Shown: positions 34,175 to 55,257, counted from the stretch's first letter. The stretch is 64,000 nucleotides of DNA from Haliea sp. (GCA_031414375.1 JANNVJ010000137.1:22780-86779); one strand, 5' to 3'. Notes: generated by a model not told the origin, from the letters alone. Program-made: numbers and translations.

Positions 34175-34182
34175 GCTGTGAA

Positions 34183-34246
34183 ATTTAGCAAAGGCTAAAT
34201 ATAAAAGCAAGCATTTGCTTGTTGTTAGATTTAGCGGACGCTAATA
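34183..34246. promoter_or_regulatory. oR: three 18-bp operators at 23-bp spacing with back-to-back pR and pRM
   Basis: ATTTAGC-AAAG-GCTAAAT (34183), AGCAAGC-ATTT-GCTTGTT (34206), ATTTAGC-GGAC-GCTAATA (34229); pR TTGCTT-17-TAAATT (minus), pRM TTGTTA-17-TAACCT (plus). Confidence 0.85.
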
Positions 34247-34257
34247 ACCTCCCTTCG

Positions 34258-34986: not shown

Positions 34987-34996
34987 CATAAAATTT

Positions 34997-35443: not shown

Positions 35444-35477
35444 GCAATTATATGTGACTAAAAACAGGGAGAAAATC

Positions 35478-35858: not shown

Positions 35859-35864
35859 TCAAAT

Positions 35865-36095
35865 ATGCCTAAAGAACAAAGCCTTGACTCTCAAACCGCA
35901 ATTGCACTTACCGCCTTGGCGTCCGCTCTTGTTCGCCAGTCCTCAATCGACGGGCAAAAACTGCGAATGGATTTTTTAGACATCCTCGAAGGGCTTTGCG
36001 GAGGCCCTGAAAATGTGGGGGAAGTTGGACAGGGTGCCGCTCTGTTGATGCAGCGCTTTCTTGCAACCGACGCAGATAATCCTCCACCTGTTTGA
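35865..36095 (+). CDS. Hypothetical protein (76 aa)
   Basis: Third gene of the cI-downstream cluster. Confidence 0.5.
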   Translation: MPKEQSLDSQTAIALTALASALVRQSSIDGQKLRMDFLDILEGLCGGPENVGEVGQGAALLMQRFLATDADNPPPV

Positions 36096-36168
36096 CATAT
36101 AGCTCCACCTTCGTGTCACTCATGTAATCCGCCCTCTGATTTAATCCCAAGATCAGTATATTTAATAT

Positions 36169-36212
36169 ATTTAGCAAATGCTATTGACTGAATATTTATC
36201 ATTTGCTAAATT
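36169..36212 (+). promoter_or_regulatory. oL/pL: two operators overlapping a near-consensus sigma70 promoter
   Basis: ATTTAGC-AAAT-GCTATTG (36169), ATTTATC-ATTT-GCTAAAT (36194); TTGACT(36184)-17-TAAATT(36207). Confidence 0.85.
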
Positions 36213-36255
36213 TACCCAAGTCGGCGCCATCGGAGGCCCGGTAAGGGAGAGAAAA

Positions 36256-36429
36256 GTGGACAACACTCAAAGGGTCAGTGACCCAATCTGCAACAAATGC
36301 AATCAACCCTGCAATGTTCGGATTGTCGAGGAACCCACCTACGACAACGGCATAACGGTGTTTTACCAGGAGGTTGGTGTTTCCTGGTGCTGTGGTGCCG
36401 ATTACTCGAAAGCGGGGGTGGCAGCATGA
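36256..36429 (+). CDS. Small Cys-rich protein, first gene of the pL operon
   Basis: GTG start after GGGAG; CNKC...WCC. Confidence 0.55.
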   Translation: MDNTQRVSDPICNKCNQPCNVRIVEEPTYDNGITVFYQEVGVSWCCGADYSKAGVAA

Positions 36430-36632
36430 TCGCGCGCACCGTGGAATCCCAAGGGAATTACTGGCTCGCCTCGGGGGAAGCCTATGGCCGCCCCATTCTT
36501 GCGGAGGGCATTGACCGGCCCGAAGCAATCAAGAACTGGGTAAGTGCAGCAGCCGAGCGCCAGGCGGAAGTAATGGCTGTCGAGAGTGGCCAGCGGGCAT
36601 TTAACAGGGTTATGGGTTTTATCAACAGCTAA
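36426..36632 (+). CDS. Hypothetical protein (68 aa)
   Basis: ATGA-coupled; MIARTVESQGNYW. Confidence 0.55.
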   Translation: MIARTVESQGNYWLASGEAYGRPILAEGIDRPEAIKNWVSAAAERQAEVMAVESGQRAFNRVMGFINS

Positions 36633-36642
36633 GGGGAATTTT

Positions 36643-37629
36643 ATGTCAGCACAAGAAACAGGACTAGTCAGTATTGAGCCGGTAGCGTTTAACAATTCCA
36701 TCGGCGGCCTGCTGATGAATCCAGTGGCCATGCACGAACTGGAAAAGATAGCCAATCGCATGGCAACGGCGAAGATTACGGTGCCGAAACACCTTGTTGG
36801 TAATGAAGGAGACTGCTTTGCCATCGTCCTGCAAGCGGTCCAGTGGGGAATGAACCCTTATGTGGTGGCAGGGAAAACCCATGTGATAAATGGCGTGATG
36901 GGTTACGAAGCGCAGCTGGTCAATGCTGTCGTCAACTCTGCCGGAGTCACCACTGGGCGCATCAACTACGAATGGTTCGGTGATTGGACCAAGGTGATGG
37001 GCAAATTCAAAGAGGTCGAAAGCAGGTCCAAAAAAGACAATGACACCGGCCAGCCCCTGAAATACCGCGTACCAGACTGGAAGATTGCCGACGAGCAGGG
37101 TTTGGGTATCCGCGTGTTTGCCACCATGAAGGGCGAAAGCGCGCCGCGCGTTTTGGAACTGTTGTTGACCCAGTGCCGGGTGCGCAACTCCCCTTTGTGG
37201 GCAGACGATCCGCGTCAGCAAATTGCCTACCTGGGCGTAAAGCGCTGGACGCGCCTGCACTGCCCCGATGTGCTGCTGGGGGTTTATACGCCCGATGAAC
37301 TGGAGCCAGAAATTGGCGAGCGCGATGTATCTCCTGCTGCCACCAGGGCGGAACCGGCGAAAGCTGAACTCAAGACCTACAACGACACAGAGTTTGAAAA
37401 AATGCTGCCGACGTGGCGCGGGATCATCGAGAAGAAAAAGAAAACAGCCCAAGGCGTCATTGCTTGGCTGTCTGATGTGGCCATTCTGACCGACGCGCAA
37501 ATTCAGAAAATCCGCGATCTTGAGCCCATTTTAGGCGTAGCGGAAGTAGTCGATAGCGCTAAGGTCGTGACAGATCCCGTCTTCACCGATTCAACTGTGC
37601 AGGAGTTTTTCGAAAATGAAAACACTTAA
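36643..37629 (+). CDS. recT: RecT-family single-strand annealing protein
   Basis: VPKHL.GNEGDC.AIVLQAVQWGMNPY.VA.KT..ING..GYEAQLVNAV; QQIAYLGVKRWTRLHCPDVLLGVYTPDE. Confidence 0.85.
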   Translation: MSAQETGLVSIEPVAFNNSIGGLLMNPVAMHELEKIANRMATAKITVPKHLVGNEGDCFAIVLQAVQWGMNPYVVAGKTHVINGVMGYEAQLVNAVVNSAGVTTGRINYEWFGDWTKVMGKFKEVESRSKKDNDTGQPLKYRVPDWKIADEQGLGIRVFATMKGESAPRVLELLLTQCRVRNSPLWADDPRQQIAYLGVKRWTRLHCPDVLLGVYTPDELEPEIGERDVSPAATRAEPAKAELKTYNDTEFEKMLPTWRGIIEKKKKTAQGVIAWLSDVAILTDAQIQKIRDLEPILGVAEVVDSAKVVTDPVFTDSTVQEFFENENT

Positions 37630-39304
37630 TGTAAAAGTGGGTAGTGACGAATGGCTGGCCGCTCGCGTCGGTCGCCGCACCAGCTCCATGGCTCCTATCA
37701 TCATGGGCTACGGAAAGAAATCACGCAACGAACTGTTACGCATGACGGCAACTGGCGACGAGGAAGAATTCTCGCGGTGGACGCTAGAGGTCTTATTTGC
37801 GAACGGCCACAAAGTTGAGGCGTTGGCCCGGCCTATCGTTGCAGCAAGGATTGGCGAGGAACTGGCCGCAGTGACAGGGACCACCGATGACGATTATTTA
37901 CTGGCGTCTTTCGATGGTATCGACATAGGCGAAACATTGGTATGGGAATGCAAGCAATGGAATGAAGAAAAGGCTGCATTGGTCCGTGACGGAATCATTC
38001 CCAAGGTCGATTACTGGCAGTGCGTACACCACTTCATTGTCTCTAGTGCGGAAAAGCTCTTGTACTCGGTAACAGACGGCACAGAGGAAAAGTATGTCGA
38101 TTGCTATCTGCTCGCATCTGACGCCGCAGAAGATATGCAAACACTGATGGCCAACTGGAAACAGTGGGATATTGATCTGGCTGCGTATGTCCCGGAGGAA
38201 GTGAAGCCGGTACTGATGGGCCGCACACAAGAATCTTTGCCCGCCCTGCTGGTGGAAGTGACCGGCATGGTGACAAGCTCAAACCTGGCGGCATTCAAAG
38301 AAATCGCCATGGCCAAAATCCAGAGCATCAATCTCGAACTACATACCGATCAGGACTTTGCTGATGCCGCAGAGGATTTAAAGTGGTTCGACCGCGTGGA
38401 AACGAACCTCGAAGATTGTAAAACCAAGGCGCTGGCGCAAACCCAGTCAATCGAAGCGCTTTTCAATACCGTGGATTCTCTCAAGGCCGAGTCCCGCACA
38501 AGGCGCTTGGCGCTGGAAAAACTGGTTGAGGCGCGCAAGAAGTCGGTTCGCGGCGAAATCTTTAACGCCGGAGTTGCGGCATTAAGGGCCGCGATCCAGC
38601 AGGCCAATGCGTCACTTCTGTCATCTGTCCTGATTGCGGACCGTGAAGTGCCAGTGGACTTTGCCGCCGCGATGAAGGGTAAGCGCAATATTCAGTCGTT
38701 GCATGATGCCGTCGAGCAGGCCCTGGCCTCGACCAAGATCAAGATTGGCGAACTGGCCGCCATGATCCACGCGAACATGATCCATCGAGAGGAGGATCGG
38801 AACACCTATCAATTCCTGTTCAACGACATTCTGGAGCTGTCGCGCCAGGCACCGCAGCATTACCGCCAAATCTTCGACGGCCGTATCACCCAGCACCAGG
38901 CCGAGCAGCAGCGCAAGGAGGATGAACAGCGGGAGCGTATCCGGATTGAAGAAGAACAAAAGGCCCGCGATAAAATTGCTTTGGAAGCCAAACAGCAGGC
39001 AGACGAAGCGGCCCGTATAGCCCGCGAGGATGAACGCAAGCGCAACACCGAGGCTATGAAGCAGGCACAGGTTGACGCGAAACAACAGGAGCCGGAAGGC
39101 AGTCCGGCGCCACCCCCTGTGCTGGTTACTGAGTCGGCGCCTGCCCAAGCGCACGGCGTTCAGGGCCTATACATCCCGGAGGCATCATTCGAGGAAACTC
39201 TTGCGAAATGGGCGCGCGCGCATTGCATTACTGATACAGCGCTGCAGCATCTGAAAAGCATTTTGCAGGTCTACGGAATAATCAAAGAAACGGAGGCTGC
39301 ATAG
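37616..39304 (+). CDS. YqaJ-like exonuclease with a long coiled-coil C-terminus
   Basis: W...R....TSS, GH.VE..AR, LLASFDG, WECK, YWQC motifs. Confidence 0.85.
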   Translation: MKTLNVKVGSDEWLAARVGRRTSSMAPIIMGYGKKSRNELLRMTATGDEEEFSRWTLEVLFANGHKVEALARPIVAARIGEELAAVTGTTDDDYLLASFDGIDIGETLVWECKQWNEEKAALVRDGIIPKVDYWQCVHHFIVSSAEKLLYSVTDGTEEKYVDCYLLASDAAEDMQTLMANWKQWDIDLAAYVPEEVKPVLMGRTQESLPALLVEVTGMVTSSNLAAFKEIAMAKIQSINLELHTDQDFADAAEDLKWFDRVETNLEDCKTKALAQTQSIEALFNTVDSLKAESRTRRLALEKLVEARKKSVRGEIFNAGVAALRAAIQQANASLLSSVLIADREVPVDFAAAMKGKRNIQSLHDAVEQALASTKIKIGELAAMIHANMIHREEDRNTYQFLFNDILELSRQAPQHYRQIFDGRITQHQAEQQRKEDEQRERIRIEEEQKARDKIALEAKQQADEAARIAREDERKRNTEAMKQAQVDAKQQEPEGSPAPPPVLVTESAPAQAHGVQGLYIPEASFEETLAKWARAHCITDTALQHLKSILQVYGIIKETEAA

Positions 39305-39306
39305 CC

Positions 39307-39879
39307 ATGATACTTATGCCATTCGACACGGAAACAACCGGCTTGCCGGACTGGAAAAACCCTTCTGAGGCCGAGAACCAGCCACATATCGTGCAACTGG
39401 CGGCGCTATTGGTAGATGAAAGCGGCGAGATTATCGACTCCATGGATGTGATCGTAAAGCCGGACGGCTGGTTGATCCCTGCCGACACCATTGCTATCCA
39501 CGGTATCTCAAACGAGCGCGCCCAAGACGAGGGCATTCCAGAAGAAGATGCCCTGCGGCAGTTTATTGGCTTGTTTCTGCGCTGCGACTTGCGGGTGGCT
39601 CATAACACGACATTCGATAACCGGATTATCCGGATCGCCATGAAGAGATATTGCCCTGACCTGATTTCAGACGAGGTTTGGAAAGACAAAAACCTCTACA
39701 GCTGCACCCTGTTTGCGGCCAAGAAAATCATGGGCGGATCCAGAGGCCACACGCTGCCGGAGGCTTACCAGCACTTCACCGGTAAAACACTGGAAGGCGC
39801 TCACAACGCCATGGTGGACACGAAAGCGTGTCTGGAAATCTACCAGGCCATCCAGCAACAACAGAAGAAGGTCGCATAG
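39307..39879 (+). CDS. DEDDh 3'-5' exonuclease (DnaQ-like)
   Basis: FDTETTGL, AHNTTFD, HNAMVD motifs. Confidence 0.9.
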   Translation: MILMPFDTETTGLPDWKNPSEAENQPHIVQLAALLVDESGEIIDSMDVIVKPDGWLIPADTIAIHGISNERAQDEGIPEEDALRQFIGLFLRCDLRVAHNTTFDNRIIRIAMKRYCPDLISDEVWKDKNLYSCTLFAAKKIMGGSRGHTLPEAYQHFTGKTLEGAHNAMVDTKACLEIYQAIQQQQKKVA

Positions 39880-39881
39880 CT

Positions 39882-40394
39882 ATGAACGTATTCTGCTTCA
39901 ATGGATTTTTGGGCCAAGACGCCGAGACTCGATTTACTCCGGACGGAAAGCCGGTTGTCAGTTTCAGTGTTGCCTCTACCGCTGGTTATGGCGACAAGCA
40001 GAAAACTACTTGGATTCGCTGCAACGCCTGGGGCGAACGCTACCAGAAGATAGCCGGATATTTGCTCAAGGGCAAAAAGATCACCGTGACTGGCGAGTTT
40101 TCGCAGCGGGAATGGCAGGACAATTCCGGCGCTACCAAATACAGCTGTGAGGTGCGGGTGAATGACCTTGATTTGCCTCCGCGCTCCGATCAAGACGGCG
40201 CAGGGCAGGCCTATCAGCAGGCACCCCAGCAGCAGAGCGACCACGGCCAGCAGCGGAGTCAGAACACTGGCGGGCAGTCAGCGAATCGGCAGCAGTCAGG
40301 CGGACCACCGGCAACTGATCCAAATGACTTTGGCGGATTTGGTGATATGGAGGACATCCCGTTCTCGAATTACGAGTACCGGACCTGGGCATGA
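39882..40394 (+). CDS. ssb: Single-stranded DNA-binding protein
   Basis: GFLGQDAETRFT, YLLKGKKITVTGE, Gln-rich linker, DMEDIPF tip. Confidence 0.95.
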   Translation: MNVFCFNGFLGQDAETRFTPDGKPVVSFSVASTAGYGDKQKTTWIRCNAWGERYQKIAGYLLKGKKITVTGEFSQREWQDNSGATKYSCEVRVNDLDLPPRSDQDGAGQAYQQAPQQQSDHGQQRSQNTGGQSANRQQSGGPPATDPNDFGGFGDMEDIPFSNYEYRTWA

Positions 40395-40840
40395 AAATCT
40401 GTCCGAAATGTGGCGTACCCAAGCCGCTGGAAATGTTCTACAAGAACAATCGGACTATTACGGGCCGTGATTTATCCAAATGCAAAGATTGCGCGAAAGC
40501 CGGAGTCAGGAAGAATCGTTTGGAAAATATAGACCGATACCGCGAATACGATAGGGCCAGAGGGGCAAGAACGCCAGACTCCTATCAGCGCGAATATCGT
40601 GAGCAGAATAGGGAGAAATATGTGGCACAAACCGCTGTTTCTAACGCAGTGCGTGACGGTCGGCTTACCAAGCCGGACAGATGCAGTCACTGTCATATGG
40701 TTGGCGAAGTTGAGGGCCATCACCCTGATTACTCAAAACCCCTGTCCGTGGTGTGGCTATGCGCGGCCTGTCACAAACAATTACACGCTCTGCTCAGAAC
40801 GCTCGAAAAGGCAAAGGACATGATGCAGCAAAGCGCTTAA
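40391..40840 (+). CDS. HNH-type nuclease with Zn fingers
   Basis: CPKC...CKDC; CSHC...EGHHPDY...WLCAACHKQLH. Confidence 0.75.
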   Translation: MKICPKCGVPKPLEMFYKNNRTITGRDLSKCKDCAKAGVRKNRLENIDRYREYDRARGARTPDSYQREYREQNREKYVAQTAVSNAVRDGRLTKPDRCSHCHMVGEVEGHHPDYSKPLSVVWLCAACHKQLHALLRTLEKAKDMMQQSA

Positions 40841-40964
40841 AGAACCTGCTTCGGCAGCAGCTGTCAGACGGTCGGCTGTCCACCGATCCGCCTGGTAATC
40901 CCCGACACGGAGTTTCGGCCGCTCCACCAGCGAAAGGCCTTTAATTCTAATCAGGAGTGAGAGC

Positions 40965-41345
40965 ATGGAACTTGAAATATCGAAAGACGGCTTCATTGCC
41001 GCACTGCGCACGCTTGAAGGTGGCGCGCTAATTGAGGAACTGGATCGCGGTTTGATTGAGTGCGTCCAGGCTATCCAAGAACGCGGCGGCAAGGCCGAGA
41101 TTAAGTTGAGCATTATGGTTGGCAGGATTCCGGGGACGGCTACCGCTGTCTCTGTGTCCTCCGATGTAGTAACCAAAGTGCCGAAGGAAGACCGTTCCAG
41201 CAAGGTGCTGTTCGTCACCCCTGGCTACGGACTTACCCACCAGCACCAGGAGCAGGAGGAATTTGATCTGGGCCTGCCGTTGGTCCAAAAAACCGCACCA
41301 CTTACCCCAGTATCTCACATAGGAGTAGATAATAATGTCGGATAA
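40965..41345 (+). CDS. YfdP-like phage protein
   Basis: Directly upstream of the DUF2303 gene, the usual pairing. Confidence 0.55.
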   Translation: MELEISKDGFIAALRTLEGGALIEELDRGLIECVQAIQERGGKAEIKLSIMVGRIPGTATAVSVSSDVVTKVPKEDRSSKVLFVTPGYGLTHQHQEQEEFDLGLPLVQKTAPLTPVSHIGVDNNVG

Positions 41346-42156
41346 AACCGAATACAACGCAGCGTTCGACCATGGGCGTCAGGCGCAATTTGTTACCCAA
41401 TTGGTTGAGGGCGTCACCCACATATTAGTGCCTGGTGACTGTAATTTGCAGTCCATGGAAAAACTGCTGCCAGCACCGCGAAGGATTGTGGCAAATCCCG
41501 AGTTTTACGATGTGGACGGCTTTGCCGACTACGCCAAAGAGTTCAAGAGCGATGGCACGCGGATATTTGTGGATCAGGAGCAGCGCCGCTTCTTCACCAT
41601 CTTCGATTTCCACGCACCCGGCCAGCCAGCTTGGGGCGATCACTCCGCATCCTTGGCCGTGAAGCTGTCGCCAGAATGGGAGCGCTGGAAAAAGATTGAC
41701 GGTAAGCAGTTGGAGCCGCAGGAACTGGCCGAATGGCTGGAGGATAACCTTGAGTACGTCATGGGTCCGGTGGGTGGTAGCGAACTGCTGGATATGGCGC
41801 AAAACCTCAAAGTGACTCTGAAAGGCAATTTGCAGATCGACCAAACCCTGCAGGCCGGGCTGCGAACACTGCAGATCAAAGATGAAAGCACACTTGCCGG
41901 GAAGTCGGGCGGAAAGGATTTGTCTTTCCCGGAGCGGGTAGACCTGGCGTTGCGCATCTACGATCACGGCGATACCTACCCCATCAAGGTCTACCTACGA
42001 TACCGAACCGCGACCGATTCCGTGGTGTTCTTCTTCAAGATCCCGGATCCGGAGCGCCTGGAAGAACAGGCTTTTGATTTGATCGTTTCAAAAGTCAGGG
42101 AAGCCACTGAACTGAAAACCCTGAAAGGGAAGTTCTCGGGGCCACGGCACAAATAA
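41335..42156 (+). CDS. DUF2303 (YfdQ-like) protein
   Basis: IFDFHAPGQPAWGDH, ELAEWLEDN, FPERVDLALRIY motifs. Confidence 0.8.
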   Translation: MSDKTEYNAAFDHGRQAQFVTQLVEGVTHILVPGDCNLQSMEKLLPAPRRIVANPEFYDVDGFADYAKEFKSDGTRIFVDQEQRRFFTIFDFHAPGQPAWGDHSASLAVKLSPEWERWKKIDGKQLEPQELAEWLEDNLEYVMGPVGGSELLDMAQNLKVTLKGNLQIDQTLQAGLRTLQIKDESTLAGKSGGKDLSFPERVDLALRIYDHGDTYPIKVYLRYRTATDSVVFFFKIPDPERLEEQAFDLIVSKVREATELKTLKGKFSGPRHK

Positions 42157-42233
42157 CAGGCTTACCCTGGCGGGAAAGAAGAATCCCCCTGTTGCCGGTG
42201 TCCCAGCTACCGCCAGTTTTTATAGGAACAGAA

Positions 42234-42587
42234 ATGAAAGAAGCAAAAGATCATAGTCGATGCTCGCCGGAGGGTGCAATTGCCGGCAAGGCTTTGGTTC
42301 GCCTTACTGATCCAGCGATTGCTGAACTTGTTGCAGAAGGAGAGGCCGATGATCGGTGTCCGACATGCGCGTTTAGAGAGGGCACTGTTCCCAATATGTG
42401 TCTACAGACTCAAGCTGACGCAATTAAGGCCGTCATAGAAGATGTTTTATTCACATGCCACCACAAAAAGCCAATCGGATCACATGTGTGTCACGGCTGG
42501 TTTGCTGCCAGGTATGCGTTACGAAACAATCCGGGCGGGGCAAAAAAGGTGCCGTGGGAATTTTCGGCCCCGGATGATGCTCAGTGA
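42234..42587 (+). CDS. Cys/His-rich hypothetical protein
   Basis: Start re-called to MKEAKDH after AGGA; CPTCAF, FTCHH, CHGW. Confidence 0.6.
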   Translation: MKEAKDHSRCSPEGAIAGKALVRLTDPAIAELVAEGEADDRCPTCAFREGTVPNMCLQTQADAIKAVIEDVLFTCHHKKPIGSHVCHGWFAARYALRNNPGGAKKVPWEFSAPDDAQ

Positions 42588-42593
42588 AGCGAT

Positions 42594-42782
42594 ATGCTCC
42601 TTAATACCGACGACCTAAAAAAGTGGCTCGGCTACAAGCGCAAGGCCGATGTAATAAATTGGCTGGATAAGCGCGGTATCGGCTGGCAGTTCGGCCACAA
42701 TAAGGAAATCTGCACTACACTGGATGCTGTGACGCATGGCATTGAAGCCACTGAGAAGCGCACACCAGCGAGGTTTGGGTAG
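42594..42782 (+). CDS. Excisionase-like protein (DUF4224-like)
   Basis: LNTDDLKKWLGYKRKADVINWLDKRGI; directly upstream of the integrase. Confidence 0.7.
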   Translation: MLLNTDDLKKWLGYKRKADVINWLDKRGIGWQFGHNKEICTTLDAVTHGIEATEKRTPARFG

Positions 42783-43819
42783 TGGGACGCAAGCGTAGGC
42801 GCATCAATGAGAACCTGCCCAAATACGTTTACAGGAAGCGTGATGGGTATATATTCCGGCCCTACCTCGGGACAGAGGATGGAAAGGCTGTATTCGGTAA
42901 GGATCTGTACCTGTGCGGCAAGGATGCCAGCTCTGCCAAAGTATGGGCTGCGTTCGAACAGGCGACCGGGGTAAAAACCAATACCCTGCGCTGGCTACTG
43001 AAACAGTACCACGCAAGCCATGAGTTCCAAAAGCTGGCCCCGCGCACCCAAAAGGATTACAACGGCTTTCAGGAAAAGCTATTGAATCGCCCACTGAAAG
43101 ACGGGGCATTGTTCGGTGATGCGCCTTTCAATGATATTGATATGTTCACTATTCGCCAATATTTGAAAACCTACCGGGACAAAAATGACAGACTGGCACC
43201 TGTTGCCGCCAATCGCCATATCCAGTATCTCAAGGCTGGCTGGAATGTCGTGTTGCAGATCTGCCAGAACGTGCCAGCCAATCCCTGCATGGGCGTCACA
43301 CTGAACAGTGAGGAGGCGCGCACCCGACTAGTCACCCCCGCAGAATACGGCGCGGCCCACGGGCTCGCTACGGGCTATCTGGCGATCATGATGGAACTGG
43401 CCTACCTATGCCGTGCCCGACGCGGAGAAATCACAGCCCTGCGCCGCAGCGACGAGACAGAAGATGGATTGCGCCTGGTCAGGTCAAAGGGCAGCGAGGG
43501 CGAGATAACCGCCTGGTCGCCGCGGTTGCGTGCCGCGGTAGACGCCGCAAAGGCATGGAACCCTGGCGCGCCCAGCCCCATTGGGGGAGGTTATCTGCTA
43601 CATGACAAGGCGGGCCAGCCAATCAAGAAGAACGCCTTTGACTCTGCCTGGCGCCGACTGATGGATAAAGTGACCGCTGCCGGGGTTGATCCGTTTACTT
43701 TCCATGATCTGAAAGCCATGGGCTACAGCTCAATGGATAAGCAATTTGCGGGGCACCGGTCCGCCAAAATGCACAAAACCTATAACCGAAAACTACAGAT
43801 AGTTGAGCCGCCAGCATGA
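42782..43819 (+). CDS. int: Tyrosine integrase
   Basis: ARRGE, HDLKA, AGH and C-terminal Tyr (TYNRK); ends ~105 bp from the att core. Confidence 0.92.
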   Translation: MGRKRRRINENLPKYVYRKRDGYIFRPYLGTEDGKAVFGKDLYLCGKDASSAKVWAAFEQATGVKTNTLRWLLKQYHASHEFQKLAPRTQKDYNGFQEKLLNRPLKDGALFGDAPFNDIDMFTIRQYLKTYRDKNDRLAPVAANRHIQYLKAGWNVVLQICQNVPANPCMGVTLNSEEARTRLVTPAEYGAAHGLATGYLAIMMELAYLCRARRGEITALRRSDETEDGLRLVRSKGSEGEITAWSPRLRAAVDAAKAWNPGAPSPIGGGYLLHDKAGQPIKKNAFDSAWRRLMDKVTAAGVDPFTFHDLKAMGYSSMDKQFAGHRSAKMHKTYNRKLQIVEPPA

Positions 43820-43834
43820 CAACTTACAGTATTT

Positions 43835-44078
43835 TTTTGGCCGCACCTACCCAAATCGTACTGTATGGGCAATCAGTGCAGAATGCTGGAAACCAGCGGA
43901 AAGCCACTGGTAGCAAGGGTTGTAGTGGTGCGCCTGACACGATTCGAACGTGTGACCGCCTGGTTCGTAGCCCGACAGACAATCCCCGTATATCAACGTG
44001 TTGCCCCCTCTTTTTTTGGCCAATCTTGCCCGCTTTGACCGGTTTTATCAATAACTTGCGGACTTATTTTGGCCGCAC
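43835..44078 (+). repeat. Direct repeats flanking the att core (candidate integrase arm-binding sites)
   Basis: TTTTGGCCGCAC at 43835 and 44067; TTTTTTTGGCCAATC at 44011. Confidence 0.6.
43926..43972 (-). other. att core: 3' half of a tRNA-Arg(ACG); not a complete tRNA gene
   Basis: Minus strand GG-CTACGAA-CCAGG-CGGTC-ACACG-TTCGAAT-CGTGT-CAGGCGC-ACCA; upstream sequence does not supply the 5' half. Confidence 0.9.
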
Positions 44079-44153
44079 TTTTCACCAACAAAATAACTGG
44101 GCGAAAAAATTCCGCCCAACTGGATTGGCATGAATTATGACAGGAGACAAGCA

Positions 44154-44411
44154 ATGACAGTGACCGCTAAAGAAAAAGACCCCATACCCGAAAGGTGGCA
44201 TTGGGCAGATGTGGATTGGAACAACTCGAACGCCCATGCACAAATCTTGAGGGAGCACATCGCCGCGCTGGAGAGGGTGGCAGAGGTAATGATTGACACA
44301 CTCGCGCCAGACAGGGTACCAGTCCATGAGTTATCGCTGGCAGTTAGAACGATTCGCAAGCCCATCATTAACGCACTCCGCGCAGCGGGCTATCTAGGAG
44401 GTGGGGAATGA
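44154..44411 (+). CDS. Hypothetical protein
   Basis: RBS AGGAG; start re-called to MTVTAKEK. Confidence 0.55.
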   Translation: MTVTAKEKDPIPERWHWADVDWNNSNAHAQILREHIAALERVAEVMIDTLAPDRVPVHELSLAVRTIRKPIINALRAAGYLGGGE

Positions 44412-44845
44412 GTGAGTATAGAAAAAGGTCAGAACCGGTTAAGGCTATTACTTTTGATGAGCTTGTTCAGCACGGAATAGCCACTGGTGGAAATATCGTT
44501 AATGGGATGCCGTGGAGCTTTAAATATAACGGTCTACCGATCACGCATGAAAACGATGACTGCTATTTAATACCTTCACCAACAGGCGGGTCATTACAAT
44601 TCAATCGCGGAGACATGCTTGTGACGTGTGGTGATGGGGCATTATTTCCGATGAGCCTACCGTCATTTTGTATGTACTACGAATGCGACCTAGTGCTAAA
44701 GCCGGATGCCAGCAATAACCCGATGATTATCGGTTACATCAGCACCATCACTGCACACAAGCTGAGATCGGGTGCAAACCTATGTGTGTCCATACTACAA
44801 AAAGCGGGTAAGCATCATAGCGTAGCAGTTTACCTGAATGAGTAA
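44408..44845 (+). CDS. Hypothetical phage protein (145 aa)
   Basis: YRKR..PVKA...GDMLV..DG..FP pattern, common in phage early regions. Confidence 0.6.
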   Translation: MSEYRKRSEPVKAITFDELVQHGIATGGNIVNGMPWSFKYNGLPITHENDDCYLIPSPTGGSLQFNRGDMLVTCGDGALFPMSLPSFCMYYECDLVLKPDASNNPMIIGYISTITAHKLRSGANLCVSILQKAGKHHSVAVYLNE

Positions 44846-44999
44846 CGTTATAGACCTGGATACCCAGCGGCCACACAGAACGGGACCACTGGACTGTGGT
44901 CATTGTGGCTATAGATGGGTAGGAGTGTGGTTGGCTGATGCACAAACAGTAACATGCCCTGAATGTAGCGCCGTAATAATGGCGGAATCTGATGAATAG
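44838..44999 (+). CDS. Unannotated Zn-ribbon protein (53 aa)
   Basis: MSNVIDLDTQRPHRTGPLDCGHCGYRW...TCPECS. Confidence 0.6.
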   Translation: MSNVIDLDTQRPHRTGPLDCGHCGYRWVGVWLADAQTVTCPECSAVIMAESDE

Positions 45000-45165
45000 C
45001 GACAAATTTAATAGTGAAGCATGGCCGGATGAGTATGTGTATTTTTTGCAACGCAGAGTTAAAGAGTTAGAGCACCTTGTAGCCCATGGACATCTTACGC
45101 CGTCGCAAACGCCACCGCTGGAATCGCAACCACCGAACCTGACAGGATCGCAGCACCACGAGTGA
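44992..45165 (+). CDS. Possible small hypothetical protein (57 aa)
   Basis: Coupled to the upstream ORF, but overlaps the convergent tail gene end. Confidence 0.3.
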   Translation: MNSDKFNSEAWPDEYVYFLQRRVKELEHLVAHGHLTPSQTPPLESQPPNLTGSQHHE

Positions 45166-48100
45166 CACGTAGCTGGGCAGAATGTCCCGCGAACGCAGCA
45201 ACACCCCCGGCCCCGTCCAGCCAATACAGATCATCAGTTACGCTGTTAGCTGCGTCAATGTAGGTGTCGCGCACAGCCGTACCGACTGACTGCATGCCCG
45301 CATAAATCCGCCATTCGGCATAGTCATAGCACAACCCCACGTAGAACCATGCGCCGCTGGTTAGGCCCAGAGCGATCGTCGCCTGGATTGTATCCCCGAT
45401 ATAGAGATCTATGTCGCCGCTTGCGTTTTTCCGAACCTCAAACGTGTTGTTATCCGCCGCCACATGGTTCCCGAACAGGATCATAGCACCGGTGGAGCTG
45501 TTGCGGAAAAACCCCTCAAACGTGAATTTTTTAGTGTAATTGAACGCCGGGTATTTAAACCGCTTCCCGCTGTTGAGTAGGGTTGTCAGGCCAAACAGCA
45601 ATTGTGCGTTGCTGTAAGTCAGCGCCCCTGCTCCCTCTACAGTCTCGGTCAACGCATAATTGCTGCGGTCAACGATGTTGGTTGCCCCATTCGCTTCGCC
45701 GCCGTTGACCAATAATGCCACATCTACAAACGAGGTAACCGGGGTCGGGTTATACATAATCATCGCCAGGGCGTAATGATCGGGTTGCCATGCATTGCCG
45801 GTATTGGAGATAAAATGCCTGTGCTTGACGTTCTCCCCGTGGCTGATTTGTCGCGTGTCGTGGGTGTAGGCGGTGAAATATGACCCTTTATGTTCATGCG
45901 TAGCGGAGTAATTAGAGTACCCAGTGACGCCTAGAGTATTGTCGCCCGCAGTTGTTTCCTCCTCTCCCATCGCGGAAATCTCGATAAAATAGTCTTCCAC
46001 GTCCACCGTCCCTAGCAGCCCGGTGCACAGCGTAAAGTCAGGGTCTATCGAAGCATATGAGCCCTTCCAAAAAAAACAGACGCCGGGACCTACGGAGTAA
46101 TCATCGGTTCCGACATACAAGCTCATTCTGATGCGTTTTAGAGCAAGTCCGAGAGCAAGCGTTGCCGGGTGAGTATGGGCACCGCCCGCGCTTATAGGGG
46201 AATATCGCGGAGGCGTGACGCCGATGGTGTCAGGTGAGCCATTGCTTATTGTTGGGCGTGTCCAATGATCGTGCGCATCGCTCGTGCTGCCGGTCGCGCC
46301 TATCGCTACTGTCTGGTTATTATTTCCGGCATTGATGCTGTCGGTTGCCGCCATGAGCAGTCTCTGAGCCCCTATCAGCCATCGGGTCATGTTGGGGTAG
46401 GACAAATCTTTGAGCCCAAACACCATGACCTCTTTGGGAATAAAAGTGCCCACAGTGGTAATTTTTTCGACAAATACATTTTCTCTGCGGTACACATCGG
46501 GCGTCAGCGTGCCCGTGTTGTAGGTGTGCAGGTGCCCTCCCGCGAGCTCGTCCGTATCGTCGTAAATGTAACCGCTACCAGAGCCAATCCTCGCAGTAAA
46601 TGACTCGCTTTCGAATTTGGCCTCAGTGGTGCCGTGCGCGCCGTCTGTCGATGTATTACCGCTCAGTGCGCTATGGGTAGAGGCTCCTCCGGTAGCGCCA
46701 ACAGCGACAGTATTGCCCGCTCCTTTGATGTACTTGCCATTCGCGGCGTTATACAGCTGCCAGCCGCCGGGCACCGTGGAGCCCTTCAGTAGCCCCAGGA
46801 CGCCCACGGGAACAATTCCCGCACCTCCTGGCAGCACGAGATCAGATGGGTAGTGCAAATCAGAATACAGCAGCCCGGTGGCTCGATAGCGCCCCGCGTC
46901 GGTTGTTGCACTGACTCCCTCAAGCAACACCAACAAGCGAGCAGCGGTTTCAGGATCGTATACGTCGATTACCTTGCCCTTATGGTAAGCAATGCCTATG
47001 TCTGCAGAGGTCCATTCCGCGCGCAACCTGTTTTGCATCCGGTTGAGCTTGGATTGCGCCTTGTTCTGGGCTTCCTCTGGGCGGGTTATGCCTCGCATAT
47101 CCATGCGGGTCTCAATCAATGGCACCTCGCCAGAATCCACCCCCGGTACCTCGAAAATGGCAGGCTCTGCTTCCAGCCAGTTGGGAGTAGTATCGCTAGG
47201 GGTTGTGTGCTGGACTATGACGCGGGTAGGGCTGTCGGAGTTAGACAGTGCGGCCAACCTGAGAGACCCGGCAACCAAAGTGCGCTCGAACCAATACTTG
47301 CGCTTTATCGATGCCTCTTTAACCGTTCCAACAAAGGCGGCATCGGCGAATGCAGCGATCGTGCCGCCATCCTCGGTCCCGGTCGCCACAAATTCATAGG
47401 CATGCAGCCCGGTAGCGGTCTGGTATTCAATCAGCGGCACGCCGTCCAGCTCCAGGCGCGCACTTCCGGCTGTGACCGTGGTCAGCTTTAGGGTTGCGAT
47501 GTACGTCTCGCCCACCTCAAAGGCTTTTGACAGAGGCTGCGATGCCTGACCTGCAGTGCCGGCGGCCTTATCCAGTGAGTCGGTGGCAGGGTTGTGCGTC
47601 CAGCCTGTGCCCAGCGTCCAGTCGGTAGCGTGGGAAATAAAATCCATGTTGTCGCCCATCTCCCAGCCGCTCGGGTTCTGGGCGTCAACAGGGCGATCCG
47701 GTAACAGCGTTATCCCGTCTCCCTCAAAAAACCAAATGCAGTCGGCATAGGTCGCCAACAAGTCAAGCCATTCGTCGGTAGGGCGAACGCCGGAGATGAC
47801 CAGATCAAGCCTGGCGCGCTCCACTGCGCCCCCTAATAAGCTTTCGTTCCAGTCAATGCTATTGATCAGGGTGTTGACCACGGTCGCGCCGAACCCGTAA
47901 AACGGATTCATTGCCAGCTCAGTAAAACACATCGCGGAAATATTGTCGTACACATAGCCCGGATTCATGGCGTCGGAATCTGCGTAGGGCGAGGCAATGG
48001 CCGTATGTACGCCGCCGTATCTATTGACTGTTTTTGTGAGGCGAGCGGCTATATAGGTGCCGTCAAACGCATTCGTCGCGCTTATGCCATCGGCCAAACC

Positions 48101-49150
48101 GAGCCAGGCGGGGCCCGTTGTAGCGTACAGCGAAGCTGTGCTTGCAATGCGGTAGGCGTGCACTCCGTCAACATAAAAGTGGTATTCGCGGGCGGTGAAT
48201 TCTATGGTGATTTTTACCGGAGTATCGACAGCCAGAACATTCGTGGCAAAGGTGATGGCGCTGGCAATACCCCATGAAGTGCCATTGCTGGACATATTGA
48301 CACGCAGATCATCATTGCTCTGGTATACCTGAATAGATCTGTCGCTAGCACTATCGCCCTTGCCGAATATGTAGTGTGTGCCCGTGACCACATCCGGCTG
48401 GATCGCCAGCTCAATCGTCCATCGTCCAGAACCGAAATCCGCATTTGTATCGTCTTGCACAACAATGTAATCGCCATTGCCGTCCATCTCCGCCACATTG
48501 CCCTGAATGTTGGCCCCGCCTACCCACGTTGTCCCGTGATCGTGCGTACTAACGTCCATCCCCGTGGCGGGTGTAGATCCATTGGTGCCAATAAATTGCA
48601 GGTTGTAGCCCACAAGCAAATTATTGCCAGAGTCGAAGGGGTCACCTGTAGAGTCGGCAGCGCGCGGATCGTAGACCAAGCGACCGCGCACAATCCCCTG
48701 GAACTTGGGAGACTCGCTGATAGCGCCAGGCGGTAGGAGAATGACAACATAGGCAGCGGCGAACAGGCCAGCGGGCTTCAGCAACACCATGTTGTCGCTG
48801 TAACTGGGGATTGTCGTGATACTAGCCACCAGATCGTCTACGCCCTGGATCGAGGTGCCCCGGTACATGCGCACTTCCGCCGATGCCGGTAGTGGCTTGC
48901 CGTTGTAGAAGATGGCATCGAACTGGAAGATTTCACCCGCCGATGCCGCGGCGCGAGCAATGAAATTTCCGCCCGCATCATAGCCGTATGCGGAAACCAT
49001 AAGCGGGACGCTGCGGGAACCGTACACGATAGGAACTGGTGCGTTATCGGCCGTCACCTCGATTTCGAGCTCTCGGGGCGCCTGTTTGAACGCGTTGACC
49101 TCTTTTATGGTCAGCCGGCCCCGGACCTTGCCGGATCGTGCGGCGCTCAT
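45095..49150 (-). CDS. Tail-tip hub/central fibre fusion with two LamG-like domains and collar/HxH needle repeats (1351 aa)
   Basis: PVPIVYG and RGRLVYDPR hub motifs; two concanavalin-like segments; HLH, HDH, HTH, HEH, HRH motifs. Confidence 0.8.
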   Translation of the reverse strand: MSAARSGKVRGRLTIKEVNAFKQAPRELEIEVTADNAPVPIVYGSRSVPLMVSAYGYDAGGNFIARAAASAGEIFQFDAIFYNGKPLPASAEVRMYRGTSIQGVDDLVASITTIPSYSDNMVLLKPAGLFAAAYVVILLPPGAISESPKFQGIVRGRLVYDPRAADSTGDPFDSGNNLLVGYNLQFIGTNGSTPATGMDVSTHDHGTTWVGGANIQGNVAEMDGNGDYIVVQDDTNADFGSGRWTIELAIQPDVVTGTHYIFGKGDSASDRSIQVYQSNDDLRVNMSSNGTSWGIASAITFATNVLAVDTPVKITIEFTAREYHFYVDGVHAYRIASTASLYATTGPAWLGLADGISATNAFDGTYIAARLTKTVNRYGGVHTAIASPYADSDAMNPGYVYDNISAMCFTELAMNPFYGFGATVVNTLINSIDWNESLLGGAVERARLDLVISGVRPTDEWLDLLATYADCIWFFEGDGITLLPDRPVDAQNPSGWEMGDNMDFISHATDWTLGTGWTHNPATDSLDKAAGTAGQASQPLSKAFEVGETYIATLKLTTVTAGSARLELDGVPLIEYQTATGLHAYEFVATGTEDGGTIAAFADAAFVGTVKEASIKRKYWFERTLVAGSLRLAALSNSDSPTRVIVQHTTPSDTTPNWLEAEPAIFEVPGVDSGEVPLIETRMDMRGITRPEEAQNKAQSKLNRMQNRLRAEWTSADIGIAYHKGKVIDVYDPETAARLLVLLEGVSATTDAGRYRATGLLYSDLHYPSDLVLPGGAGIVPVGVLGLLKGSTVPGGWQLYNAANGKYIKGAGNTVAVGATGGASTHSALSGNTSTDGAHGTTEAKFESESFTARIGSGSGYIYDDTDELAGGHLHTYNTGTLTPDVYRRENVFVEKITTVGTFIPKEVMVFGLKDLSYPNMTRWLIGAQRLLMAATDSINAGNNNQTVAIGATGSTSDAHDHWTRPTISNGSPDTIGVTPPRYSPISAGGAHTHPATLALGLALKRIRMSLYVGTDDYSVGPGVCFFWKGSYASIDPDFTLCTGLLGTVDVEDYFIEISAMGEEETTAGDNTLGVTGYSNYSATHEHKGSYFTAYTHDTRQISHGENVKHRHFISNTGNAWQPDHYALAMIMYNPTPVTSFVDVALLVNGGEANGATNIVDRSNYALTETVEGAGALTYSNAQLLFGLTTLLNSGKRFKYPAFNYTKKFTFEGFFRNSSTGAMILFGNHVAADNNTFEVRKNASGDIDLYIGDTIQATIALGLTSGAWFYVGLCYDYAEWRIYAGMQSVGTAVRDTYIDAANSVTDDLYWLDGAGGVAAFAGHSAQLRVTRGAAILSGSVVAIPAVAFATA

Positions 49151-49668
49151 CGGCGCGACACCAGGGTGTAGGAATCGCCCTCGTGCTCAATAATGGTGCC
49201 GGAAGGTGGGATATGAATGGAAAACTCGTTAAAGGTCGTGCGCGGAGTCACGTTGCCACGCAGGTAGCGGTGTATTGCGTTGACGGTAATGGTGCCGTTG
49301 GCATAGGAGGATGCGTCAATCACTCCATCAAGCACCAACAAGCCCTCCTCAAGCGCATACACGCCGTTATCGTCTGGCAGGCCCGGAACGGAATAAATCT
49401 GGCATGTTTTGCCATTGCGCCAGTTTCCCGAGATAACCTCAGCCACCCTCGCATTGGTTGAGGGCAGGGTCAGAACGGCACTGCGACCATCGTCAATTGT
49501 GACGCTGAACAAACCGCCTGCGGTGTAGAGCTCACCGTCAAATGTAATATCTCCGCTGCCCGATATGAGCTCCAGCGCCCCGGAATGCTCCCATCGCACT
49601 AGGTTTACGGGGCGGGTAGCGCCCGCATTTGCGTTGTTAAATTGCGCAGTACTTAACCGGCGGCTCAT
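49147..49668 (-). CDS. Tail-tip protein (gpL-like position)
   Basis: SG.GDITFDGELYTAGG...LDGVID pattern; between distal tail and hub genes. Confidence 0.6.
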   Translation of the reverse strand: MSRRLSTAQFNNANAGATRPVNLVRWEHSGALELISGSGDITFDGELYTAGGLFSVTIDDGRSAVLTLPSTNARVAEVISGNWRNGKTCQIYSVPGLPDDNGVYALEEGLLVLDGVIDASSYANGTITVNAIHRYLRGNVTPRTTFNEFSIHIPPSGTIIEHEGDSYTLVSRR

Positions 49669-50006
49669 ACCAGCTTCCCGGCAAACTCAAATGACCACCA
49701 ATGCGTGACGCCGTTGGATACGCTTTTATCTAGGCTGTCCCCATTGATATAGCCGCGATAAATTTTTGAGTTGTGGGGAATGTCGAAATGTGTAGCGGCA
49801 TTGGCGTACAGGTATGATTCAAATGAGGCAGACTGCGCCTCATCTTGTGGGCAAAACACGCAATTTATTTTGATGGGCTTGAGTGTCGTGAGTGTCCTCG
49901 ACCTAACCTCGCCATCACTCATAGAGTCCAACTTGGTCCCAAGGCTGGGTTTAAATGCGGTCGCTGTTTCCAGCGGATAGGTGGACAGATCAAACGTGGT
50001 TGGCAT
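49665..50006 (-). CDS. Distal tail protein (gpM-like position)
   Basis: Small beta-protein directly after the tape measure; SMSDGEVRSR. Confidence 0.6.
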   Translation of the reverse strand: MPTTFDLSTYPLETATAFKPSLGTKLDSMSDGEVRSRTLTTLKPIKINCVFCPQDEAQSASFESYLYANAATHFDIPHNSKIYRGYINGDSLDKSVSNGVTHWWSFEFAGKLV

Positions 50007-50009
50007 AGC

Positions 50010-53000
50010 CTACACCCCCCCTGCTTCAGAGAGTCGGTTATCGTTGATCGTTATGCCATTGGTGACGAGATTGTTCACGGCTTCGGAGAATGTCTGGCTG
50101 GCATCCTGATTTGCGCCCGATGCAGCCAGGTTGGTATTGGCCGCCTGCTGTTGCTTGTCCGCTGCGCTGTCTAGCATGTCGATAATGCGGATATTAATGT
50201 CTTCCTGTGATGACTGCAGGCCCGTGAGAGCGCCTTGGAGTAATCCCTGCGCTACAACGTTCGTTTGCTCTGCATAACTGGCGAATTCCTCCGATCGTCG
50301 AAGCTTTTCGTTTTCGGCCAAGCTATCGAATATCTTGCGGTTCAGGTCCAGGATAGATTTTGAGGCTTTGTCGATTTCCTGCGGGTCCGTCATCGATGCC
50401 AGCATAGCGCTTAGGGAGTCGCGCTCCGCCACACGAGCAGTGCGCAGCTGATCAGCGGTAAGCACCGACTGCCTTATGTACTCGGCCTGATCTGCTGCCA
50501 CGATGCCGATCTGCTGGCCAATGGTCTGGATAGCCATGGCGAACTGATAGGCGGCTGTCTTGTTTTCGATCAGCAGGTTATTCAGGTTGGAGGCAGATGC
50601 GGCGCTGCCGTCAAAGTTGCGTATCTGTTCCAGAAGTGCCGCAGAGTGATCGCGGTATGCCGTCGCTACAGTGGGTGCTACAGCCGAGAATTCCTTGATT
50701 GCATTGGTGACGGAGTTTATGCCCGCCTGCTGGCTGATAGAGACAATGGCCTGAGAAAATTGAACAATCTCCGCAGCGGTCCCGCTGGCGTTTTGAATCA
50801 AGGTCAGCAGGGTATCACTGATACCCCCGGCGCTGACGTCCAGTGCCACAAGCCCGGTAGTGAAAACGGCAATTTCCTCTGCTGACCCACTGAAGTTTGC
50901 AATGAGTGGCTTCAGGCGATCGCTTACCTTGTCAGATGCGGCGACAATCTGCCCAAACCCGTAGGCCAGCAACTGGTTGGCATCGGAAAACGCCTTCCCA
51001 TTGAATGAGAGCTTCCCGCCACTGTCTGCAGTGATTCCGCCCTTTAACGTCGAACCACCAATAGCATCGCCAAAGACTGAGAGTTGCCCCATTAGCTGAT
51101 CAACAAAATCCGCCTGCTCCCTGCCCTCTCCCTTTTTCCAGCTATTGCCGCTGCCAGCGCCTTTACCGAATGTCCCGGTAGAGAAGTCGAAATCAGCTCT
51201 GGCTACGTTCTTGCCGTCGTTGTTGTTGCCGCCATAGCCGAACGCCTTGCCTAGTCCGCTCTCGATAGCTGTGCCGACAAAGCTGCCGATAGCGGCCCCG
51301 AGTACGGGAACGCCAATTAGTGCAGACCCTGCAATTGCGCCTATGCTTGCGCCAACACCGGACGTTTCCCCAAAGACCTTGCTCCCGGCATATCCTCCGA
51401 TCATGCCCCCGGCGAAATCGCCCGCCATTGACCAGCCAGTAGTGGCAGCTGCTTTTGCGTTGAAGGCGTTACTGGTCTTGAACAGACCGAGGTCATTTGT
51501 GATCGTTCCGAGGGACGAATACAGCCCCTTGCCTGCCGCTGTAATGCCACTCGTGAGACTGGACAAGCCACTCGTGAGCGAGGAAGCGCCCGCAGTGGCA
51601 CCAGATACCCCTCCGGATGCGGCGCCCGGCACAAGGCCACCAAGCGCTGCACTGAACTGCATCGCTATGGGCCGAGTAATCGCCAAATGCGCCATATTTG
51701 CCAGTAGGTTAAGAAACGAATCCTTCAAATTCCCAGCGAAGTTTTTAAAGCCGTCCTCGGTCCCGCTGAACGCATCCCGCCACGCCTGCGTAAATCCAGT
51801 ATCGATACTGGACGCCATATCCGTGAGCGCATCGTTCCACGGCTTCATGGCGTCTTCAGATGCCTTTGTGGCGGCAGTGGCCATATCCTCAGCCGCCTTG
51901 GCTGCGTCCCCAGCTGCCTGAGCCTGAGAGGCTGCGGATCGCGCTCTGGCGTCCTCCTGCGCATCCGCCTCGGCTTCAAGCGTGGTGGTCTGGATAAAAA
52001 GGGCGGCGGTCTTGGACTTGATTTGCTCAATCTCGGCAGCGGTCGCTGTGGTACCCGCTTTCTGAACAGCGGTATTGATAGCCTGCTGCAGCGCATTCAC
52101 CTTCAGTTGTTTTGTCTCGAAATCCAGCGCGGTGATCATGCCCTGTACCGCTTTCTGCGCTTTGGCGCTGCCTTCTGTTTGTTTGTTGGTGCCGGATGCC
52201 AGCTTGATCAGGCCCTCGGTTGTGTTGTTGATAGATTTGCCAGCGGCATCAAGGCGCGCCTTGTAGTTGGCAGTTGCACCGGTGGTTGTGCCGGTGCTAG
52301 CAGTAGCCGACTTAAGCTGGGATTCAAGCCCCTTTAGTTCCGCCTCGGCAGCAATGACGGCCCCGGCAAACCTTTCGCCGCCTGCGCTGAACCTGACTAT
52401 CTCGTCTTTCAGCTCCGCAATTCTGCTGGTGGTCTTGGAAATGTTCTCCCCGGTTGCCGTCTCGCCCAATCGGTCAAGATCGTCCTTGAACGCGCCCAAA
52501 CCCCTGGCCTTGTCAATCAGGAATGCAATGCCGTCACCAATAGCGGTGAAAGTCGTAGCCGCAAGATTTATCAAGGATGCCGTCAATGACGCGACACCAA
52601 TGCCCGCCTCGATAGACATGCTGCCCAAGTCCTTCAGGTTCTTTTTCATGGCAGGATCAGCGAGCGCGGAATTCATTGCTTTAATTGCTTTCACTGCAGG
52701 ACCTGAATCCGCCGCACCGAACGCATCAAGCAGGTTGTTTTTGATCTCCTGAGTCGCGCGGCCAATGGTCATGGGCATTTGCTGAAATTCAGAATCTACG
52801 GAACCAGCCATTAACTTGATTGCATTGGTGACTTTTTCGGACGTGAGCTCGCCTTCAGCGCCCATCCTGCGCAGCTCGCCTATACCAACACCTAACCCAT
52901 CGGCCAACAAACGCGCCAGCCGGGGTGATGACTCCATCACGGCGTTCAGCTCTTCGCCTCGCAAAACACCAGAGGCCATGCCCTGCGATAGCTGTAACAT

Positions 53001-54743: not shown

Positions 54744-54759
54744 GATTTTATTCTCCGAA

Positions 54760-54786: not shown

Positions 54787-54804
54787 GGGCTTGTTAGGTA
54801 GGTG

Positions 54805-55254: not shown

Positions 55255-55257
55255 AAA

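Follow-up and report, generated by a model that had tools for sequence, protein, structure and literature searches.

How the 3' part of a tRNA-Arg(ACG) gene comes to lie between two sets of virion genes, one podovirus-like (module A) and one siphovirus-like (module B), is the question raised by a 64,000-nucleotide stretch of DNA from Haliea sp. (JANNVJ010000137.1:22780-86779). The whole of this stretch is called the window below, and positions without a contig name are counted from its first letter. It corresponds to C137:22780-86779, where C137 is a contig of 110,685 bp assembled with MEGAHIT and belonging to a metagenome-assembled genome (MAG) of 140 contigs and 4.55 Mb from freshwater sediment. 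The MAG can be assigned to the Halieaceae, its PheT protein being 81% identical to that of a MAG of Haliea sp. Working from the window alone, a first-pass annotation had read the tRNA fragment as an att site joining two virion modules served by a single early region, and had put forward three models: prophages stacked at one tRNA gene (the one it favoured), one genome encoding two virion types, and an assembly chimera of phages sharing an integrase and att site. We conclude that C137 probably carries two separate and complete temperate phages, placed head to tail via a shared segment that encodes a DUF2303 protein, and that the tRNA-Arg fragment belongs to an ordinary attP in one of them.

ARAGORN and Rfam were used to find tRNA genes and Pfam and PHROG to assign proteins, while relatives were sought in IMG/VR and the JGI metagenome contigs. 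Megablast of the window, in three thirds, against 50,697 phage records gave no match. Sister samples were compared through the Logan contigs (k = 31) of three runs, referred to as X1 (the source run), X2 and X4.

Results

The tRNA-Arg fragment lies in an ordinary attP

The fragment (43926-43972, TGGTGCGCCTGACACGATTCGAACGTGTGACCGCCTGGTTCGTAGCC) is the reverse complement of the terminal 47 nt of tRNA-Arg(ACG). It is identical at all 47 of 47 positions to C90:13550-13596, which lies inside an intact 77-nt tRNA-Arg(ACG) gene (C90 c[13550-13626]) on another contig of the same MAG. No whole tRNA was called in the 64-kb window by ARAGORN or Rfam, and neither an intact tRNA nor a second copy of the tRNA-Arg core was found on the whole of C137 (110,685 bp). 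The DNA on both sides of the core is phage DNA, as the first-pass annotation had stated: genes for an excisionase (xis) and a tyrosine integrase (int345) lie to the left, and small open reading frames (ORFs) followed by the tail-tip gene lie to the right. A 12-bp repeat (TTTTGGCCGCAC) has just two matches in the window even when one mismatch is permitted, one on either arm of the core. As the same repeat is present on both arms and the site comes right after xis and int, the arrangement points to one intact attP. To judge from the sequence, then, the fragment is an ordinary attP inside the genome of a siphophage and not the joint of two elements for which it had been taken.

Lambda-type xis-int-attP modules target the 3' ends of tRNA genes, as in P22, P4, HP1 and many prophages. 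The present module (attP-Arg) resembles them in having xis and a tyrosine integrase gene directly upstream, a core formed by the 3' part of a host tRNA, and repeats on both arms; it also occupies the same place as in the lambda map, with int on one side and the far end of the tail genes on the other, the three small ORFs that follow it being the counterpart of the lambda b region. Nothing in the module is unusual by this comparison, the core being fairly long (47 nt, reaching into the anticodon loop). In G033, a complete genome from the same genus, an integrase 49% identical to Int345 is encoded 134 nt from a full tRNA-Arg(ACG) gene, suggesting that the Int345 lineage targets tRNA-Arg(ACG); this homologue came from a later genome search, one search of genome contigs having found no relatives of int345. 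Exact-pattern scans with the P arm gave no match in IMG/VR or the JGI metagenome contigs. On C90 the host tRNA-Arg gene adjoins sequence resembling neither arm of attP-Arg. From the type of integrase, Int345 would be expected to recombine the attP core with the host tRNA-Arg gene at its 3' end; the gene would be restored by the incoming siphophage DNA, and the 47 nt displaced from it would come to lie at the opposite end of the prophage.

Two local irregularities were seen around this module. Contigs from X1 diverge from the window at 44274-44397 and then rejoin it, with different letters (the local piece 43943-44402 has a depth of 8.5), which indicates that a co-occurring variant differs at this spot beside attP, where the accessory genes are variable. 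In X2 the depth falls to 1.2 over about 42003-42669, where a 131-aa ORF lies upstream of xis.

The two phages meet in a shared DUF2303 segment

C137 contains two copies of a 1.3-kb segment that carries a small ORF and a DUF2303 gene, and on sequence grounds it is these copies, not the att site, that form the true joint between the phages. One copy (R1) lies within the window and the other is divided between the two ends of the contig. The terminal 482 bp of C137 (110204-110685) are 92% identical to C137:63730-64211, the left half of R1, and the initial 789 bp (1-789) are 95.7% identical to C137:64213-65001, its right half. The contig ends in ...TTAGTGCC and starts with GGTGACTG..., and R1 reads TTAGTGCC-T-GGTGACTG; exactly one base is thus absent between end and start, at a single-nucleotide polymorphism that corresponds to position 41433, and the first base of C137 is the first base of the 119-bp run (N) that is the same in both copies of the segment. 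As the end and the start are colinear with R1, the contig ends meet each other and not host DNA. A long-read homopolymer error at the start of C137 had also been considered and was rejected, the apparent deletion being the contig junction itself.

Followed from N, C137 passes through a second integrase gene (int388), a second attP (attP-Pro), a cargo region, module A and early region 1 to reach N again, and from there through xis, int345, attP-Arg, module B and a further early region (early region 2) back to N. When cut at N it falls into arcs of 64.2 kb and 46.5 kb, each apparently a complete lambdoid map, and it carries integrases, attP sites, immunity/replication regions, RecET modules, lysis cassettes and virion modules all in pairs. 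It should be noted that below k = 119 the graph would be the same for two circles with N in common and for one 110-kb circle passing through N twice. Elsewhere in the MAG, C139 (47,433 bp) and C89 (2,782 bp) have ends that overlap exactly by 141 bp, which points to MEGAHIT loop contigs at k = 141; together with poly-C contig ends, these loops point to MEGAHIT having been run on short reads, which also speaks against a long-read error. The ends of C137 share no 141-bp overlap, and by this measure it is not a closed circle. An exact-protein look-up with the DUF2303 protein returned no record. In X1 two allele sets occur at 42048-42100, at 17.6 and 6.3, which suggests recombination or heterogeneity within the shared segment.

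Each half resembles a temperate phage in its gene set

In the 64.2-kb podovirus-like phage, the TerS, TerL, portal and capsid genes of module A were recognised by PHROG, as the first-pass annotation had indicated; among 17 ORFs of this module compared with PHROG there was no match to a tape-measure, tube or sheath protein. The late operon ends in a single ORF of 4009 aa (2-916 on the minus strand, running on to C137:11666-23695), and its homologue in G061, a relative described below, is 65% identical over 904 aa. Early region 1 and the late operon are joined in single X1 contigs, of 18.4 kb (16000-30855) and 7.8 kb (31190-38977). The core of attP-Pro, downstream of int388, has phage DNA on either side, and in the source run a Logan contig reaching this core from the left shows the flank that C32 has downstream of its tRNA-Pro gene. 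This phage therefore has the full lambdoid set, that is int and attP, CI-like and O-like proteins, Nin, Q, lysis, terminase and structural genes, the last in one late operon, and it would be autonomous, with its own Q-dependent late operon, immunity/replication region, RecET, int388 and attP-Pro.

The siphophage (46.5 kb) has tail and head genes from tape measure to portal recognised by PHROG within the window, with its TerL gene running off the right end. Beyond it on C137 come the rest of TerL-B, then TerS-B, lysis genes including a spanin, a methyltransferase, an O-like replication protein, a helix-turn-helix (HTH) repressor whose gene diverges from a small ORF, RecT and RecE, and an exonuclease of the RNase T type; the RecE here is 58% identical to that of early region 1. 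By its predicted gene content this stretch of TerS-B, lysis, replication, repressor and RecET genes is a second early region, outside the window, and the single early region described earlier is an effect of how the window was bounded. On C137, early region 2 directly follows module B. A 29-kb X1 contig runs rightwards from 44373 and was matched through 55999; given its length, it should reach early region 2. The lambdoid set found in the siphophage comprises xis, int and attP, the HTH repressor, O-like and NinG-like proteins, RecT and RecE, spanin, TerS and TerL, and full head-tail genes; among the ORFs examined, none was recognised as a Q-type antiterminator. Read on the plus strand, its map would be xis, int345, attP, accessory ORFs, module B (minus strand), lysis genes, early region 2, RecET and DUF2303, and so back to xis. 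Each late operon lies directly downstream of its own early region, which argues that the two halves are separate units.

The two phages vary independently

In X1 the podophage has a depth of 10.6-10.9 and the siphophage one of 10.6-13.3 (about 1:1), beside about 12.3 for the core of the host chromosome and 10.5 for a strain-specific P4-like island. In X2 the siphophage is continuous at about 5.4 and accounts for 0.96 of the sampled words, whereas the podophage is fragmentary, with a depth of about 1.5-3, pieces at 2.4-4.6 and 0.47 of the sampled words, giving a podophage to siphophage ratio of about 1:3; same-strain pieces of the host are at 3.2-4.5. X4 has traces of the podophage (20 short pieces), none of the siphophage, and only related strains of the host. 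The two phages thus vary independently across samples.

The arrangement at the shared segment could be followed in X2 with a table of alleles that separates early-1 from early-2 alleles at 41228-41389 and int345-side from int388-side alleles at 41553-41964. An 873-bp X2 contig has early-2-side alleles at 10 of 10 positions (scored against R1, 41228-41389) followed by int345-side alleles at 17 of 17 (scored against the contig start). It is therefore the closing junction of a stand-alone siphophage.

Relatives carry one virion module or the other

The podophage has a complete relative, G061 (IMG/VR uncultivated viral genome 3300037882_002064; 65,422 bp with terminal repeats, 100% complete by CheckV), which is syntenic with module A over the stretch that begins with the lysis genes and closes with the giant tail-end protein (portal 76%, TerL 77% and capsid 84% identical) and whose size agrees with the 64.2 kb predicted for the podophage monomer. 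Neither int388 nor any of the module B genes of C137 has a homologue in it. The early-2 copy of RecT is the nearer one to its own (71%), showing that modules are shuffled among these phages. Conversely, a 36-kb IMG/VR fragment (G062) carries module B genes alone, with a capsid 86% identical; no relative of the module B capsid was found in 300 genomes of the same order.

Table 1. Position of features on C137. Coordinates are those of the window unless preceded by C137.
Feature	Position	Strand	Basis or remark
Shared segment R1: small ORF and DUF2303 gene (41335-42156)	40951-42222	+	PF10065
Identical run N, 119 bp, same in both copies of the shared segment	41434-41552	+	Self-comparison
Excisionase, 62 aa	42594-42782	+	phrog_1266, E = 6e-7
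Tyrosine integrase int345 (345 aa), siphophage	42782-43819	+	PF00589; ends 107 nt before core
Candidate arm-type Int site, P arm, TTTTGGCCGCAC	43835-43846	+	80 bp left of core
attP-Arg core: 3' 47 nt of tRNA-Arg(ACG), anticodon stem through ACG anticodon to CCA	43926-43972	-	Sequence identity
Candidate arm-type Int site, P' arm, TTTTGGCCGCAC	44067-44078	+	95 bp right of core
Three small ORFs between attP and tail-tip gene	44130-45051		No Pfam match in two examined
Module B, siphovirus late operon	45095-64000	-	PHROG matches
Tail-tip gene, 1351 aa	45095-49150	-	Module B
Tape measure	50010-53921	-	Module B
Tail terminator	55258-55668	-	Module B
Adaptor	56602-57081	-	Module B
Capsid	57438-58370	-	Module B
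Scaffold	58388-59107	-	Module B
Head-morphogenesis protein	59527-60585	-	Module B
Portal	60572-61990	-	Module B
TerL-B, 805 aa	From 61987, beyond right end of window	-	Module B
Late operon and module A, podovirus-like	1-27298	-	PHROG matches; synteny with G061
Major capsid	14430-15656	-	Module A
Scaffold-position gene	15683-16663	-	PHROG of unknown function
Portal	16854-19055	-	Module A
TerL	19043-20605	-	Module A
TerS	20605-21138	-	Module A
Endolysin	25917-26516	-	Module A operon
Early region 1, podovirus-like phage	27448-40840		PHROG matches
Q-like antiterminator	27448-28107		Early region 1
NinG	29869-30645		Early region 1
Methyltransferase	31215-31796		Early region 1
O-like replication protein	32933-33775		Early region 1
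CI-like repressor	34219-34986		Early region 1
RecT	36586-37629		Early region 1
RecE	37616-39304		Early region 1
Second integrase int388, 388 aa	C137:2520-3686, left end of contig		PF00589 and arm-binding domain
attP-Pro core, 31 bp	C137:4154-4184, downstream of int388		Identical to 3' end of C32 tRNA-Pro(GGG)

Other features of the phages and the host

Just upstream of int388 in the podophage (C137:1598-2092), a Tad2-like domain of the Thoeris anti-defence kind (PF11195, E = 1.7e-26) was recognised in a protein of 164 aa, and the cargo region after attP-Pro encodes a HerA-like ATPase of 601 aa (C137:4800-6605). An exact repeat of 24-25 bp is present twice in the same cargo region (C137:7878-7902 and 8788-8811) and once on C139 (33323-33347); X1 contigs have loose ends exactly at 7902 and 8788, suggesting an alternative arrangement between the repeats. 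C139 itself is a third element in the bin, a closed MEGAHIT loop with its integrase gene split over the contig ends, and short patches of it are 80-89% identical to the early region of the siphophage. In that region the siphophage also encodes a pentapeptide-repeat protein of 193 aa (C137:104549-105130), whose gene holds tandem DNA repeats with a 30-bp offset (C137:104689-104858). A five-gene cassette upstream of the siphophage lysis genes (C137:89260-92560) has homologues, up to 81% identical, in the module-A-type phage G061, where it lies between the lysis genes and terS; the podophage has a different fibre/esterase cassette at that place (21138-25279). The cassette thus appears to move between the two types of phage.

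On the host side, the tRNA-Pro(GGG) gene follows pheT and is itself followed by a different island (C32:211004-216009) with a P4-like integrase (408 aa) and a DUF3987 protein; the depth of this island in X1, already given, as compared with that of the chromosome marks the site as an insertion hot spot. The MAG also has a one-spacer CRISPR (clustered regularly interspaced short palindromic repeats) array (C67:294-382) with type I-F-like repeats (GTTCACTGCCGCGCAGGCAGCTTAGAAA) and encodes Cas6f/Csy4 (C36:780-1319). The repeat-flanked spacer is present in both X1 and X2 and matches an early gene of the siphophage outside the window (C137:109673-109704) with one mismatch and a 5' CC beside the protospacer. 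The siphophage is thereby tied to this lineage of hosts, and one may ask how the two coexist.

Discussion

Phage mosaicism and repeats are known to yield fragmented assemblies and chimeric contigs (Phables; PMC10104058). C137 behaves like mosaic lambdoid phages in this respect, with a shared segment of the recombination module (92-96% identical) plus other patches and a contig break at the longest identical run; it is unlike a mixture of strain variants in that the virion modules and integrases are wholly different, and so resembles one element with two morphologies. The chimera model put forward at the outset rightly points to assembly as something that may be responsible; the part common to both phages, however, is the 1.3-kb segment upstream of the integrases and not int and att. 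If C137 represents two separate phages, as we think probable, the head-to-tail order would arise as the contig follows both genomes through the 119-bp run, and the transmissible units would be the two monomers. We infer that the order seen in the source sample reflects the path taken by the assembler or a recombinant form, not a stable replicon.

Tandem prophages are well known, and an attB carried inside a prophage has been documented in the lambdoid prophages of Shiga toxin-producing and enteropathogenic Escherichia coli (PMC8112680). Like clusters of lambdoid prophages, C137 has two phage genomes adjacent with an att-like sequence between them, and a hybrid P-O-P' site would indeed be expected between two phages at one attB. 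That the fragment is the middle att copy of tandem prophages at one chromosomal tRNA-Arg gene is nevertheless very improbable, being contradicted by C137 itself. Additional copies of the core are required by a tandem array at one attB and likewise by a prophage within a prophage (PMC8112680), and lambdoid clusters are chromosomal with attL or attR and host DNA at their borders, whereas the 110 kb of C137 has one core copy, two intact attP sites, no host flank and no intact tRNA. The integrases are also paired with different tRNA genes (int345 with tRNA-Arg(ACG) and int388 with tRNA-Pro(GGG), the attP of the latter being itself intact), the repeat on both arms argues for an origin from a single phage, the contig ends meet each other, and the tRNA-Arg flank on C90 matches neither arm. 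We therefore do not share the preference of the first-pass annotation for stacked prophages; the inspection of the flanks that it proposed did reveal a second early region with a repressor on the right and a second integrase at the left end of C137, but no full tRNA-Arg and no further core. If instead one phage carried a tRNA-Arg attB into which the other had integrated, for which the documented attB sites in prophages provide a precedent, two hybrid cores would be expected around the insert. A single copy is present, and the repeat on both arms and the location after xis and int are traits of an attP and not of an attB, so that this explanation is scarcely credible. A viral genome making two types of virion from a single early region has next to no probability either. 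Within the 64 kb of the window one early region does lie between the structural modules, but C137 has, right of module B, another full early region, as well as a further integrase, attP and lysis cassette; each late operon follows its own early region, the halves vary independently across samples, and a complete 65.4-kb relative carries module A alone. A second early region on that side had been named by the first-pass annotation as a test of this model, and the model is refuted by it. The earlier judgement that two different phages are likelier than one genome with two virions is borne out by the same second early region.

The alternative that deserves most attention is a real heterodimer of 110.7 kb, a circle or mixed concatemer formed by homologous recombination at DUF2303, dominant in the sample and perhaps episomal, with both attP sites intact. 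We regard it as unlikely though by no means negligible, and several observations that weigh against two free monomers are to be set on its side. C137 is a k = 141 unitig that crosses R1 although the identical run is merely 119 bp, so that some X1 reads or local assemblies should carry the early-1-to-int345 phase; the Logan contigs, at k = 31, are blocked for phase by this run and by both att cores (47 and 31 bp). In X1 the two halves are equally deep (about 10.6-10.9) and close to the host island (10.5), which fits one molecule or a pair of single-copy residents more readily than free phages. On the MEGAHIT contigs both att sites are uninterrupted and in attP form, junctions with the host are absent and the host tRNA genes are apparently free of both phages, which is odd for single-copy residents. 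The allele split at 42048-42100 would also fit recombination in the shared segment, and both phages encode RecT and RecE. On the other hand, the siphophage is about three times as abundant as the podophage in X2, where the closing junction of the monomer was found, and the podophage occurs alone, as traces, in X4. The contig breaks exactly at the identical run without the 141-bp overlap of a resolved loop, and two circles sharing N would produce an identical assembly graph. A molecule of 110 kb would, we infer, be too large for a capsid that packages 65 kb (as in G061) or about 46 kb, and no partition or plasmid-replication gene was seen among the ORFs examined in the cargo region and early region 2. 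A more specific version, in which the source sample contained mainly a non-integrated 110.7-kb heterodimer at about one copy per chromosome, a stable episome of both phages with each attP intact, formed by RecET-type recombination at DUF2303 and resolvable to the podovirus or the siphovirus genome, seems to us quite doubtful. Two separate complete phages are accordingly the reading that we prefer.

The case carries a caution, in that a 64-kb cut of a metagenome contig made two ordinary lambdoid phages resemble one element with two virions, a paradox that was dissolved by the whole contig, its ends and the sister samples. The xis-int-attP module is ordinary; what is new is the pair of temperate phages of a freshwater-sediment Halieaceae bacterium, with attP sites in tRNA-Arg(ACG) and tRNA-Pro(GGG), together with a recombination-prone segment that they share and links to their host through tRNA identity and a CRISPR spacer. 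As both phages have a host-like depth and yet are in the attP form, they may persist in this bacterium as episomes or as a cointegrate.

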